Shown here piece by piece: positions 25,329 to 30,405 of a stretch of DNA of 30,429 nt. The position numbers and the translations under genes are program-made. Origin of the DNA: Bacilli bacterium. Its GTDB lineage: Bacteria > Bacillota_I > Bacilli_A > RFN20 > CAG-826. Numbering within the stretch: the stretch's first letter is position 1; each line of letters begins with the position of its first letter. The notes beneath the pieces are model-generated. The model worked only from the letters and a program-made list of their open reading frames with translations, was not told the origin of the DNA and did not search any database. The stretch covers positions 1 to 30,429 of the forward strand of contig JAFZUD010000020.1 in NCBI GenBank assembly GCA_017618495.1, read 5' to 3'.

Positions 25329-25943
25329 ATGAGAAATGATTTACTAACAAGCACCAAATCGGTTTTCAAACCAAACGAACTCTTTTCTAGTGCTGACATC
25401 AACGACAAAAACATGTCTGAGGCAGCGAAGAAGGAAGGGTTAGTCAGATTGGTTAAATCCGGTGATCTTAAGCGTTATTCCTACGGTTTCTATTACATCC
25501 CTGGCCATGGTGAGCCTAGCGTATCCGAAGCAATAGAACTCCGTTACATATCACGCGGAAAAGACGTCTATGGATTCTACACTGGCGAATGCTTTTTGAT
25601 GTCTATTAACAACCGCAAAATTTCCGTCAATGAAAAAGTCGAAATCATGACCAATAAGGCCACTAGCGGAAAGAAAAACGTCTATATGTTTGGAAAGCGG
25701 TTTACCCTTAGAAAACCATACTATCCAATAGATAAAAACAACGTCACGCTTAATGCCTTTTTGGCCTATATCGCGATGACTCCATTAAGCCGAATTAAGG
25801 AAAATTATTCTGTCTTAGCAGACTATATTAAGAAGGCCCATTTGGCTGCAAACGATGTCATGGAGATGGCGGTTTATTATCCCGCCAAGACAGCCTCAAA
25901 ACTCCTGGCTTCAGACCTATATAGATCGCTTTGGAAGCATTAA
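25329..25943 (+). CDS. AbiEi/DUF6088-like winged-helix protein (type IV TA antitoxin-like), no adjacent toxin
   Basis: 204 aa. LVRLVKSGDLKRYSYGFYYIP (wHTH wing), IELRYI, VYGFYTG, EIMTN and LRKP follow the AbiEi pattern. Start moved to ATG 25329 on the basis of the promoter position. Confidence 0.65.
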   Translation: MRNDLLTSTKSVFKPNELFSSADINDKNMSEAAKKEGLVRLVKSGDLKRYSYGFYYIPGHGEPSVSEAIELRYISRGKDVYGFYTGECFLMSINNRKISVNEKVEIMTNKATSGKKNVYMFGKRFTLRKPYYPIDKNNVTLNAFLAYIAMTPLSRIKENYSVLADYIKKAHLAANDVMEMAVYYPAKTASKLLASDLYRSLWKH

Positions 25944-25988: not shown

Positions 25989-27152
25989 TTATTTTTGCTC
26001 TTCGCCAAGGGCTAATTCGCCATACTCAGAGAAGTCCCAATCTTTATGTTTTTTGACGATAACCTTGAGGGCTTCTTTCATAAGATATTCTTCCGCGGAA
26101 CGTTTGTCTTCACCGGAGTTTTTAATCGCGGACTCGGCTTTATCCATAGCAAGCTTTGTTTCGCCTTCGGATTCTTCAACCAAACCACTGATAAGGATAT
26201 AAGCTCTAACAGCAGGTCCAGTGCTTAAGTTGGCGATAAATTTCTTCTCCTCGAGTTTGAGGCTGATGTACTCCTCTTTAGCCTCATTTAATGGGTTTAA
26301 GTAGAGGTGAAGAGCCATCTTCTGAGCGACGGCGTTGAGGTAGATTTTAGAAGAAACAGAGTTCTTGCTGTTGATGGTAAACTCGTTAATTCTTAAGGCC
26401 TCATCGTAGTTCTTTTCGTTCAAAGCTTTGTATAAGGCAACTTCGTTGAGCTTAACGGTGAAGTCAGTGACTGATTCATAGACCTTGGTCTCACCGACAT
26501 CTTCGCCACGGGCCATCTTGTCCTCGGCCATAAGGATTTGGTTATAGGCAATAACGTTGGTTTTGCTGTTGAAGATGACGAAGTAGGCGCCATCGTTTTT
26601 GGAGTCGAGAGCGGCCGGGAAGATATCGTAAATGAAGATCAAGCAGCCAACGGTAAGAACCGTAATACCAACAATTTTTAAGGTAACCGCACCCTGAACG
26701 GCGGAGTTATTTCCAAGGACGATAAGGACAACGCAAAGGATGACTTCGAGAAGGAAAAGGACAAGAGGCATGAAAATAAATGGTCTTGGGTTGCTCTTTT
26801 CGACATCATTAGGAACAACCTTGGTTTCTCCTGTCAAACCGTCGAATCCACCGAATCCAACCTTCATCTTGCCTTCTTTATCGCGCTTAAAGGCAATGCC
26901 TAAGCAGGTCCAGGAGGCAACCTTATAACCCCCTATTTTCGCGCCCAAAAGGTGTCCGAGCTCTAAAACTACGGCAGTTAAGACGAGTCCGACTAAGACA
27001 GAGAGCAAAATAAGTAAGAAACCTTCCATTGGTAACTGGCTGGAAATGCTATTGTCGGTTAATAAAGGTCTAATGACGCCAAAACCGACGCCAACTGCGG
27101 CGCCGAGCATGATGGCGTATACGATATAACCCATCACATCGTTCTTCTTCAT
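25989..27152 (-). CDS. M50/site-2-protease-like membrane protein with degenerate Zn motif and helical C-terminal domain
   Basis: 387 aa from ATG 27152 (AAAGGAGGA RBS). TM helix with VVLELGH at the HExxH position, downstream KNDG, and a soluble alpha-helical C-terminal half. Confidence 0.6.
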   Translation of the reverse strand: MKKNDVMGYIVYAIMLGAAVGVGFGVIRPLLTDNSISSQLPMEGFLLILLSVLVGLVLTAVVLELGHLLGAKIGGYKVASWTCLGIAFKRDKEGKMKVGFGGFDGLTGETKVVPNDVEKSNPRPFIFMPLVLFLLEVILCVVLIVLGNNSAVQGAVTLKIVGITVLTVGCLIFIYDIFPAALDSKNDGAYFVIFNSKTNVIAYNQILMAEDKMARGEDVGETKVYESVTDFTVKLNEVALYKALNEKNYDEALRINEFTINSKNSVSSKIYLNAVAQKMALHLYLNPLNEAKEEYISLKLEEKKFIANLSTGPAVRAYILISGLVEESEGETKLAMDKAESAIKNSGEDKRSAEEYLMKEALKVIVKKHKDWDFSEYGELALGEEQK

Positions 27153-27168
27153 ATAAAAATCCTCCTTT

Positions 27169-27324
27169 AATAGGCAATAAATCCTCTTATCGCCTATTCG
27201 TCTAGTGGTTGGTGGTAAAGCCAATCACACGTGTACTTATACCCTTAACCAGACGAATTAATTGGGAGGTCGTTAACTCAATTATCCTAGGAGAAACTAT
27301 ATTGTTTCTCTTCGGTCGACCTCC
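27169..27324 (-). ncRNA. Candidate structured RNA or cis-regulatory element, unassigned
   Basis: Five helices visible in a 215-nt intergenic region (see findings). Not matched by eye to a known family. Confidence 0.45.
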
Positions 27325-27367
27325 ATTATAATTGCTTTCCCTTTCTATTTCTTCAAAAAACGAACTT

Positions 27368-27925
27368 TTACCTCTTTTTCTCTTCTCTTGAGAGCTCAAC
27401 CAAGGCCGGAAGAACGGTCACAAGCGAAGCAGTTATATAGCGTTTCATATAACGATCGAATTTGCTAACAGTAATTGTCGCATCGCGGAAACAGTAACCA
27501 AATTCATTACCGACGATGCTTGCGTATCTACGTGAGATATTACGATAGCTAGCAACGCTTAAGCTGTAGTTATTCGCGTTGTTTAAGATGGTGAAAACCT
27601 TCGAGATTATCTTGTTATAGAAGAAAGCGTCTACCAAATCGTGGGCGGCGCTGTTATAGCTCGAACGGATGAAAGAGAAGTTGTTTTTGGAGTATTCGAG
27701 GATTGCTAAAAGAACCCCTTTAACATCCTTGGCTTCATTAACCCCTTCGACAACCTCGTTGAGGAAAACAGCGGCGAGAAGGTCATAGATGTCGGTGTAG
27801 TGGTAGTAGAAAGTCTGCCTGTGGCACCCACATTTCTCACAAAGAGTGGTGACGTTGATGTCATTAAGCGATTTCGTCTGCATTAATTCCTTTAACGCAT
27901 ACTTTAGCTTGGCTTCGGTGATCAT
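27368..27925 (-). CDS. TetR/AcrR-family transcriptional regulator (DhaS-like C-terminal type)
   Basis: HTH motif INVTTLCEKCGCHRQTFYYHYTDIYDLL. ATGA overlap with the ATPase stop; AGGAGG RBS. Confidence 0.9.
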   Translation of the reverse strand: MITEAKLKYALKELMQTKSLNDINVTTLCEKCGCHRQTFYYHYTDIYDLLAAVFLNEVVEGVNEAKDVKGVLLAILEYSKNNFSFIRSSYNSAAHDLVDAFFYNKIISKVFTILNNANNYSLSVASYRNISRRYASIVGNEFGYCFRDATITVSKFDRYMKRYITASLVTVLPALVELSREEKKR

Positions 27926-30405
27926 AGTCCCTCCTTTCCTTTTTCTTTATTTCTTCTTCTGTTGTTTCTAATGTTCTGGAAAAGGATATCGAGAAGGACA
28001 TAAATGATGGCCACGAAGGCGATCATCATACCTAATATCGCCCAATGTGCGACATCTAATGCCTGGATATCCAAACCCATAAGGAACGTTTCTTTTCCGC
28101 TTTGAGCAAGCGGTGGCCAGAAAACATCCACATAGAAGATCAAAATCGAAACGACAACCGCTCCCGCAAAAACGGTGCCTCTGTAGAGGTCGAGAGGGAA
28201 GCAAATGATGAGGAAGGAAAGTAATGATATGACCGTGAAAGCAACGACACTCATGGTTTTTGCTTCCTCAACTGACACGAATTCAGGAGCGAAGACGCTG
28301 GCTAAATAGAGGGCGACAACACACAAGACCTCGGCTATTCCGCCAGGGATGGTATGTGACATAACGCCTTCCATAAACCCGCCTTTGAGCCTCTTTGACG
28401 CAGGTTGAAGCGCGAGGAAGAATCCTCCGGCACCGATGGAAACGATTTCCCAAATGAGCATGTTTCTGGTTTCGAAAGGATAGCTTGGTCCGCCAACAAG
28501 CATGGATATTAAGAAGATAAAGCTTACGATGACCGCAAACATATTCTTAATAAGGAAGAGCGAAGCGGTTCTCTGGAGGTTATTAATGACACGGCGTCCT
28601 TCGGCAACAACATCAGGAAGCTTGGAGAAGTCATTATCGACGGAGATCATATGGGCGCTGCTTCTAGCTGCGCTCGATCCGGAAGCCATGGCGATAGAGC
28701 AATCAGCGCTCTTGAGAGCGAGAATGTCGTTAACACCGTCTCCGGTCATAGCGACTTTGTGTCCTTGTGCCTGCATGGCTTTAACTAATAAGGATTTTTG
28801 CTCAGGTGTAACGCGCCCGAAGACAGAGTACTTGCTGACAATCTCAGGAATCTGTGAGTCTTCGATGGTCTGCATGTTCACATAGTTGTCCGCGTTTTCG
28901 ACTCCAACACGCTTAGCAATTTCTTTAACGGTGATTGGATCGTCACCAGAAATGATCTTGATATCAACGCCGTTGTTCTTGAACCATTCGATGTTCGCCT
29001 TGGCGTCTGGTTTGATTGTGTCAGTGATTCCTAAAATACCAATTAATTCAAGTTTTGCAGGCAATTTTTCGTTTTTGATAGGCTTTTGGCTCCAATAAAC
29101 AGCCAGGACACGATAGCCAATTCCCATAAGTTCATGGATCTTGTTGGCCACAAAATCCTTATCCACGGAATCAACGAAACCATAGGCTCCAATAACGAAG
29201 GTTCCTTCTTCTCCGAAGGTTGCCGCGCTGTACTTCTTCTCTGAATCGAAGGCGATGGTTTCGGTTGCTTCAATCTCCAAAGGATTAAAGGCGGCAGCAA
29301 TGGCTTTGGCGGTTCCGTTCTGATCGCCAGTGGCTTTAACAATGCTGGCAATATAGGAGCCAAGCATCTCGTCACTATAGTTGTTGCTGTAGTTGTAGAG
29401 GGTCTCGACACCAAGGTTTCCATCCGTTAGGGTACCTGTTTTGTCGAAGCAAATCGTGTCGACTCTAGCGAGCATCTCAATACAGTAGAGCTCTTGAACG
29501 TTCATGTGTTTGTTAGCGAGATTAAGAACACCAACGGTTAAGGTTAACGAAGTTAAAAGGTATAAACCAGCTGGAATCATGGCGACTATAGAGCCAGATA
29601 AGTTCTTTGCGAGTTCCTGGAAATCTTCGAATGTGATGTTCCAATTAAGCTTCGCGGCCCAAACAAGGGTCATCGCAAGGCCCATAACTACGGCGATTGT
29701 GCCGGTCACATAGAAGATGTTGAGGGTTGAACGCTTGATTTCGCTCTTTGGTCTGTTGAATTTCTTTGCCTCGTCTTGGAGACCTTCCGCATAGTTGGCA
29801 ATTCCGACGCTAGTGACTCTAACGTAGGCTTTTCCAGAGACGACAACGGTTCCAGAAAGAATCTTGTCCCCAGGAACTTTGTTAATCTTTTCGGCCTCGC
29901 CAGTAACCAAAGACTCATCAACTGAGATAGTTCCCTCAATCAAAACGCCATCGGTCGCGATTTGGTCTCCGGTTTGATAGATAACGATGTCGTGGAGAAC
30001 GATCTTCTCCATTTCGATATCTACTTCTTCGCCGTTTCTGACGCCGCGAACCTTTGGGTCGGTGATAAGCTTAAGCTTATCAACCGCAAGTCTTGCTCTG
30101 ATGTCGGAGACAACGCCAATGATGACGTTACTAACGACAGGAACCAAGAAAAGGAAGTTCGAAAAAGCCAATTTGGCGTTCGCCATCAAGTTGACGATGA
30201 TGATGTAGATGAAGTTAAAGAACGTGAAAACGTTGTCCAAAAGGATCTGCCAAATGGATTTGGTGACCTTCTTTTGGGTCTTATTAACGAAGCCTTGTTT
30301 CTTTCTAAGCTCAACTTCTTCGGTTGAGAGACCTTCGTGTGGACCCTTTTCTATGTATTCTGCTTTCTGAATTAAATTAATTAATTCATCTCTTCTTTTG
30401 GACAT
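27922..30405 (-). CDS. P-type ATPase (CtpE-like), M4 motif PAGL
   Basis: DESLVTGE, phosphorylation site DKTGT (29431-29445), SGDDP, FGRVTPEQK and MTGDGVND; about 10 TM segments. Confidence 0.92.
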   Translation of the reverse strand: MSKRRDELINLIQKAEYIEKGPHEGLSTEEVELRKKQGFVNKTQKKVTKSIWQILLDNVFTFFNFIYIIIVNLMANAKLAFSNFLFLVPVVSNVIIGVVSDIRARLAVDKLKLITDPKVRGVRNGEEVDIEMEKIVLHDIVIYQTGDQIATDGVLIEGTISVDESLVTGEAEKINKVPGDKILSGTVVVSGKAYVRVTSVGIANYAEGLQDEAKKFNRPKSEIKRSTLNIFYVTGTIAVVMGLAMTLVWAAKLNWNITFEDFQELAKNLSGSIVAMIPAGLYLLTSLTLTVGVLNLANKHMNVQELYCIEMLARVDTICFDKTGTLTDGNLGVETLYNYSNNYSDEMLGSYIASIVKATGDQNGTAKAIAAAFNPLEIEATETIAFDSEKKYSAATFGEEGTFVIGAYGFVDSVDKDFVANKIHELMGIGYRVLAVYWSQKPIKNEKLPAKLELIGILGITDTIKPDAKANIEWFKNNGVDIKIISGDDPITVKEIAKRVGVENADNYVNMQTIEDSQIPEIVSKYSVFGRVTPEQKSLLVKAMQAQGHKVAMTGDGVNDILALKSADCSIAMASGSSAARSSAHMISVDNDFSKLPDVVAEGRRVINNLQRTASLFLIKNMFAVIVSFIFLISMLVGGPSYPFETRNMLIWEIVSIGAGGFFLALQPASKRLKGGFMEGVMSHTIPGGIAEVLCVVALYLASVFAPEFVSVEEAKTMSVVAFTVISLLSFLIICFPLDLYRGTVFAGAVVVSILIFYVDVFWPPLAQSGKETFLMGLDIQALDVAHWAILGMMIAFVAIIYVLLDILFQNIRNNRRRNKEKGKEGL

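Follow-up and report, generated by a model that had tools for sequence, protein, structure and literature searches.

A promoter-like box and a candidate leader-RNA switch in a Fe-ADH 3'-end relic preceding a membrane-protein gene of uncultured Bacilli

Genomic context and structure of the gap

The window analyzed here is the whole 30,429-nt stretch of contig JAFZUD010000020.1, and the genes of the locus all lie on its minus strand in the order P-type ATPase, TetR, gap, and MEM (Table 1). The TetR gene product matched the NCBIfam DhaS model with an E value of 7e-16, under the model's cutoff, and a TetR-like gene precedes the element in nearly all relatives. MEM was found in 75 of 78 genomes of the genus. 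Searches of Pfam and NCBIfam found no family for it; its homologues are hypothetical proteins of uncultured Bacilli, and the presence of Peptidase_M50 in 11 to 21% of the members of its atlas neighbors provides a weak link. Every MEM homologue examined has LLExGH where M50-type proteases have HExxH, and the missing first histidine is, judging from these homologues, a trait of the family rather than a lesion of this genome. Judging from record titles and from the origins of sequencing runs, of which small shares were covered, the hosts of the element are uncultured Bacillota sampled from the ruminant gut and from digesters. Metatranscriptome contigs (small shares of the runs) cover parts of MEM and TetR, with the gap lying outside the contigs.

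Table 1. Positions of genes, signals, and helices at the locus, in coordinates of the window
Feature	Position	Strand	Remarks
P-type ATPase	27922-30405	minus	
TetR-family regulator, DhaS-like	27368-27925	minus	185-aa ORF; upstream neighbor of the element
Gap between TetR and MEM, 215 nt	27153-27367	minus	
ADH-derived sequence upstream of the -10 box	27331-27367	minus	Counterpart in sister species: ADH codons 5' of AAIMG
TATAAT, putative -10 box of a MEM promoter	27325-27330	minus	Exact in 66/66 motif-bearing loci
Domain 1	27265-27324	minus	Outer helix 27317-27324/27265-27272 around hairpin 27291-27310 (27304-27310/27291-27297)
Domain 1 3' arm, candidate anti-SD	27265-27272	minus	Predicted pairing with the SD in the post-TATAAT leader
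Core motif (domain 2 of the initial annotation)	27196-27258	minus	Covariance model match 27188-27262, 73.9 bits
P0 outer helix	27250-27258/27196-27204	minus	Often encloses P1 and P2
P1	27236-27243/27214-27220	minus	82% paired in alignment A1
Invariant ACACGUG	27228-27234	minus	In the loop when P1 forms
P2	27221-27228/27205-27212	minus	88% paired in alignment A1
Domain 3, 12-bp hairpin shortly before the SD	27169-27198 (27187-27198/27169-27180)	minus	Inverted repeat I3
SD GGAGG and MEM ATG	27161-27165; 27150-27152	minus	Read directly; invariant in clade A
MEM, 387-aa membrane protein, M50-like with LLExGH	25989-27152	minus	Translation; gene preceded by the element

An initial annotation of the window described a structured element of three domains, probably RNA, between TetR and MEM. 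The helices it listed are all present on the minus strand, as seen by direct reading and by a repeat finder that returned the same inverted repeats; one of them (27236-27243/27214-27220) carries a bulge, and another (27221-27228/27205-27212) has one A·C mismatch on that strand. Folded as the minus strand, the 215-nt gap reached -57.4 kcal/mol, compared to -41.2 ± 3.8 kcal/mol in dinucleotide shuffles (z = -4.3; 0 of 200 as good), and the plus-strand fold gave a z score of -5.4. The other window gaps of at least 100 nt, a small comparison set of three, had z scores of -0.4 to -2.8, in line with the annotated impression that helix density here is above that of other intergenic regions.

The remaining general features of the annotation also held. 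No U-tract was seen behind any helix, and no intrinsic terminator (GC-rich hairpin plus U-tract) was found between positions 25800 and 28100. A search of the window against Rfam 15 returned no known RNA family at the gathering score, the sole match at E values up to 10 being a 13-bit chance match to a Brucella sRNA, and the loci of 15 relatives gave no match. The annotation had named occurrence as a multicopy DNA repeat as an outcome that would argue against a dedicated RNA. BLAST and the covariance model each returned one copy of the element in its own 1.1-Mb genome, and all positive relatives likewise have one copy per genome; a REP- or MITE-like repeat is therefore ruled out.

Origin of the gap from a Fe-ADH gene

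In distant species of the genus, approximately 1.19 kb separates TetR from MEM and codes for a 391-aa YqhD-like Fe-ADH. The gap in the window is collinear, base by base, with the last ~240 nt of ADH in sister lineages, from which it differs by internal deletions of 27 and 9 nt and by stops in the old frame. On this alignment, the gap of 215 nt descends from the 3' end of a Fe-ADH gene deleted in this clade and has been exapted; it is not plain spacer DNA, and in most relatives the element itself is located within ADH coding sequence. A conserved leader ORF in the relic was ruled out by the old-frame stops and by indels of 1 to 3 nt among species.

Three locus layouts occur in the genus: TetR-ADH-MEM; TetR and MEM separated by the ~215-nt relic, which is the layout of the window's clade (clade A, nine species); and several shorter noncoding versions of 108 to 366 nt. 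On the TetR tree, the ADH-less state requires 8 changes, at least 6 of which are forced by well-supported branches. Considering that each ADH-less group is nested among ADH-bearing sisters and that the outgroup genera have ADH, the gene was lost repeatedly. At each loss, the exact TATAAT and the core motif were kept, and by calculation the deletions end 19 to 67 nt upstream of TATAAT, with one exception at 157 nt. Locus L229 of another genus (G323, genus g28) retains, at about 1135-1601, a ~470-nt frameshifted ADH pseudogene spread across three reading frames, in which TATAAT and the P1/P2 motif are intact. This remnant is an intermediate stage of the process behind the window's gap.

Farther upstream, the ATPase and TetR genes overlap in the window (ATGA, 27922-27925), whereas the interval between them is ~0.9 to 1.1 kb in relatives L233, L234, L235, and L236. 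This difference suggests that a second gene, besides ADH, may have been lost from the block in the window's clade.

A conserved and covarying core motif

All locus layouts share a core of ~45 nt; of 72 loci in the genus, 61 carry it. The inner hairpin of domain 2 and the partner assigned to its loop in the initial annotation correspond to two conserved helices, P2 and P1, respectively. In alignment A1 (MAFFT, 58 distinct motif copies), 76% of cells were paired, compared to 30 to 49% with partners slid, and the covariation score was 0.354, compared to 0.06 to 0.14 (0 of 500 shuffles as high), with double-sided changes in both P1 and P2; the sequences are related and belong to one bacterial family, and these shuffle statistics overstate significance. 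P1 was seen as 41 different sequence pairs. Independent switches from one Watson-Crick pair to another on the TetR tree numbered at least 34 in P1 and at least 10 in P2, and GC-rich lineages keep both helices with wholly different sequences. G·U pairs outnumber A·C oppositions 69 to 33 on the MEM-sense strand. This excess indicates that the element acts as RNA of the window's minus strand, despite the A·C in the window's own P2, and agrees with its annotation as a structured RNA.

The covariance model was positive in 24 of 151 sampled genomes, with one copy each, and these genomes represent 10 of the 48 genera of the family. The site is always the ADH 3' end or its relic directly upstream of MEM, and no comparable element was found in other families of the order within the genome sample. 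An exact 14-mer scan yielded mostly chance matches and is useful only as a specificity control: among the matches listed, 4 of 80 loci fit the covariance model, and those 4 were in TetR-(ADH)-MEM context. Comparison of homologous regions, which had been proposed as a check on the annotation, thus establishes at the level of aligned sequences both the covariation of the two helices across ten genera and the link of the motif to MEM. Reading GUG-UGA of the motif as a start-stop or as a mini-ORF was ruled out, as common variants are without the stop.

A different reading of the same conservation is a DNA operator, in which the ACACGTGT palindrome would be bound by the adjacent TetR or another factor and act as a roadblock downstream of TATAAT, with the flanking inverted repeats secondary. 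ACACGTGT is a conserved and perfect 8-bp palindrome, and its G-to-A variant still gives a shifted palindrome; it also occurs only twice in the genome, has a TetR-like gene upstream of it at almost all loci, and is present as two direct copies behind a TATAAT, beside a divergent TetR-like gene, at a locus of another family (L104). However, an operator does not predict that P1 and P2 should change sequence yet stay paired through the independent switches counted above or that G·U should exceed A·C on one strand. The palindrome is off the center of P1 and is dropped in GC-rich lineages that keep P1 and P2, the site lies 23 to 118 nt downstream of the -10 box, and three of four relatives are without a second such site near the TetR or ATPase starts. 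Together, these observations make an operator quite unlikely as the explanation of the motif.

Two further observations concern the palindrome itself. At L104 (G122, about 1490-1580), the two direct copies are of an 11-nt unit containing ACACGTGT, placed right behind TATAAT and upstream of a membrane-protein gene, and this arrangement looks like a classical operator. In the genome of the window (G000), CACGTG is strongly depleted (49 sites, compared to ~245 expected from base composition), as is ACACGTGT (2 sites, compared to ~17 expected). A restriction-modification system, or avoidance of palindromes in general, might account for this depletion, and against this genome-wide background the retained site in the motif stands out. 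The other ACACGTGT of the genome (contig C86, about 1996-2011) lies in a perfect 12-bp palindrome within a 239-aa ORF on the minus strand and is probably there by chance.

The TATAAT box and constraint on the module

TATAAT precedes the ACAC of the motif by 118 nt in the coding layout and by 23 to 111 nt in the noncoding layouts. Sigma-70-type promoters have -35 and -10 hexamers spaced 16 to 18 nt apart; no consensus -35 was found upstream of TATAAT in the gap, so that no full-consensus promoter is present there. Since the box is exact in all of the motif-bearing loci, it is probably the promoter of MEM and presumably fires. The initial annotation had cautioned that domain 1 would be truncated if the abutting TATAAT were a promoter. 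This caveat was apt, as transcripts initiated at the box would be without the 5' arm of domain 1.

Where the module is still part of a gene, its constraint can be read from synonymous codons. Across 29 motif-bearing ADH genes (7-codon windows), synonymous-codon identity averaged 0.42 ± 0.09 and reached its maximum of 0.88 exactly over the motif (codons TRVIGCC); a second peak of 0.73 covers TATAAT (codons AAIMG) and ~25 nt upstream. Within ADH, amino acids covary with silent changes in a manner that keeps P1 paired. Both TATAAT and the motif are missing from six ADH genes (L072, L074, L076, L083, L085, and L086), which form one nested clade. The absence of TATAAT from the very genes that have no motif indicates that the two signals behave as one module and are lost only together. 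In this clade the ADH stop abuts the MEM SD, which suggests that MEM expression is coupled to that of ADH. Taken together, the codon comparisons demonstrate selection on the DNA of the module.

In the window's clade, the gap of the window differs from those of the eight clade-mates by 2 to 16% (one clade pair reads 24% in pairwise alignment), compared to 11 to 62% at four-fold degenerate sites of TetR and MEM, so that the relic evolves 4 to 7 times more slowly than such sites of both flanking genes. Positions 27331-27352 are nearly invariant among the nine species. Changes in the gap affect the domain 1 hairpin loop, linkers, and the nucleotides that immediately follow the TetR stop; the others are compensatory and lie in P1, P2, and the domain 3 stem. 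Domain 1, which derives from ADH codons with the 27-nt internal deletion, has invariant stems and a variable hairpin loop across the nine species. Domain 3, the 3' arm of which is homologous to the last ADH codons, shows a compensatory U-A to C-G change along with G·U/A-U changes. Considering that neutral sites are ~50% diverged across comparisons in which these stems are unchanged or compensated, domains 1 and 3 are not junk. The annotated three-domain element is therefore upheld in part: domain 2 is conserved in ten genera, whereas domains 1 and 3 are confined to the nine-species clade, although constrained there.

These comparisons also bear on the simplest account of the gap, namely a decaying pseudogene with chance helices, the conservation of which would reflect recent ancestry or past coding constraint. 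The region is demonstrably the remnant of a gene, with its old-frame stops and deletions. However, decay does not account for the slow evolution of the relic, for constraint on synonymous sites where the element is still coding, or for the persistence of the motif in at least six independent noncoding lineages in which the sequence is otherwise unrecognizable. Neutral decay is largely refuted by these alignments, and we regard it as very improbable.

Alternative helices and possible control of MEM

The initial annotation proposed that domain 2 folds as a pseudoknot. In the aligned motifs, P2a directly abuts P1b, the linker between P1b and P2b is 0 to 3 nt, and P1 is 5 to 8 bp long. In H-type pseudoknot geometry, a 0- to 3-nt linker is too short to cross a stem of 5 to 8 bp; P1 and P2 therefore cannot coexist and are instead alternative hairpins. 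An H-type pseudoknot aptamer, in which both stems form at once, is ruled out by the same linker. With each state forced, the energy of P1 minus that of P2 averaged -1.6 ± 3.5 kcal/mol over 58 sequences, of which 15 were within 1 kcal/mol, 30 favored P1, and 13 favored P2. A pair of mutually exclusive helices, each maintained by covariation and close to the other in predicted stability, is the signature of a switch, and we infer that P1 and P2 form a conformational switch. When P1 forms, a 15-nt loop presents ACACGUG together with the conserved P2a strand, and this loop would be a natural target for an effector.

The reading that we favor, and consider rather likely, is that a promoter and a leader-RNA switch controlling MEM were kept from the ADH 3' end. 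The ancestral module would have comprised the -10-type box TATAAT and a leader RNA with the ~45-nt core, both inside ADH coding sequence. In P1, the loop would present ACACGUG together with the 5' strand of P2; in P2, that strand would pair with the sequence directly after P1, with P0 often enclosing both. An effector, which could be a small molecule, a protein, or an RNA, would recognize the conserved loop and shift the balance between P1 and P2, and MEM expression would change as a result, the likeliest route being SD accessibility. For the window, the candidate anti-SD (27265-27272) is predicted to pair with the SD (27161-27165). Only transcripts that read through from the TetR operon would contain the 5' arm of domain 1 (27317-27324), and in these the arm would leave the SD free.

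Predictions for the leaders are consistent with such an output to varying degrees. For the window leader starting after TATAAT, the predicted probability of an unpaired SD was 0.02, compared to 0.47 ± 0.23 in shuffles, 2% of which were as low. Pyrimidine-rich segments resembling an anti-SD recur in independent leaders, where they frequently make up one arm of P0 or of a helix close by. Predicted SD sequestration was strong in approximately 8 of 18 lineage representatives and absent in 4 to 5, and anti-SD duplex energies were mostly weak relative to shuffles (z of about -1). Translational control would be the preferred output on the basis of these models.

It is also conceivable that the element is a structural part of the mRNA without a sensor, acting constitutively as a 5' stabilizer, as a site of RNase processing by which MEM is uncoupled from the operon ahead of it, or as a fixed translation damper. 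A conserved structure directly upstream of MEM without a terminator, the clade A hairpin kept beside the SD by compensatory change, and the absence of any ligand-related gene association would all fit such a role. Two exclusive helices that are near-isoenergetic and both covary are hard to explain in this way, however, and a 7-nt loop that is invariant across ten genera suggests specific recognition. We consider a static element unlikely, while giving it somewhat more weight than an operator.

The initial annotation had listed a riboswitch-like switch, a small ribozyme, and a processed ncRNA as possible roles. A switch-like role remains the best reading, and nothing points to the other two. 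A small self-cleaving ribozyme or a processed stand-alone ncRNA could be expected to have a compact conserved structure with invariant unpaired nucleotides, as is found here, and the lack of any matching family leaves room for a new class. However, no ribozyme model matches, two alternative hairpins are atypical of a catalytic core, and the element always occurs as a single copy at one fixed position in the leader, with no terminator that could define an sRNA. Either role is, in our estimation, highly improbable.

Returning to the favored leader-RNA switch, what is found at these loci is a conserved and structured 5'-leader element with covariation, as in riboswitches in the generic sense. A more specific proposal, which we put forward as tentative and rather doubtful, is that the P1/P2-ACACGUG motif is a new class of orphan riboswitch: a bistable sensor, ~45 nt in length, of some metabolite or ion connected with the M50-like MEM protein, which was born inside ADH and has repeatedly outlived it. 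Since the element precedes one gene family only, and that family is without an assigned function, there is no pointer to a ligand.

Relation to known systems and significance

Several known systems resemble the element in part. Small translational riboswitches that consist of a hairpin or pseudoknot close to the SD (preQ1-I/II, SAM-II/V, SAM/SAH, and guanidine-III) are likewise ~45 nt in a 5' leader near the SD and have two helices, the loop of the first giving a strand of the second, with invariant unpaired nucleotides and covarying stems; SD sequestration is plausible for the element. In contrast to them, the element has no Rfam match even at an E value of 10, has a 0- to 3-nt linker that bars an H-type pseudoknot, is tied to a single gene family, and is mostly inside coding sequence. 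Bistable leaders and attenuators, such as riboswitch expression platforms and protein-dependent leaders (PyrR or ribosomal-protein leaders), share with it exclusive helices, both maintained in evolution, of near-equal predicted stability and cis action before one gene but differ in having a terminator/antiterminator, a leader peptide, or a known binding protein. TetR-family operators are similar in that an 8-bp perfect palindrome adjoins a TetR-family gene; here, however, the arms covary, pairing is strand biased, the site sits at some distance downstream of the -10 box, and GC-rich lineages have retained the helices but not the palindrome.

The element is also comparable to regulatory signals embedded in upstream coding sequence, as a promoter-like box and an RNA structure occupy the last 65 codons of ADH and coincide with its two strongest peaks of synonymous constraint. 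The difference is that here the host gene has been deleted repeatedly, with the module surviving as "intergenic" DNA, and to our knowledge, supplemented by a limited literature search, no case with such a natural deletion series has been described. The motif itself was likewise not described in the literature covered by this limited search. Structured cis-regulatory leaders are a known kind of element, whereas this family, its bistable 45-nt architecture, and its history appear to be new.

If the favored reading is correct, the module represents a new cis-regulatory RNA family carried by uncultured Bacillota of the gut and rumen. Its small size makes the element easy to probe, and both of its alternative helices are backed by covariation. 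The locus also amounts to an unusually clean natural experiment: a hidden module comes to light through suppression of synonymous change and because the host gene was deleted at least six independent times, each deletion halting just short of the module. Exapted gene ends can pose as structured "intergenic" elements, and most copies of this motif would escape RNA motif searches confined to intergenic DNA. For reduced genomes such as these, the annotation of gene remnants and that of regulatory elements should be read jointly.
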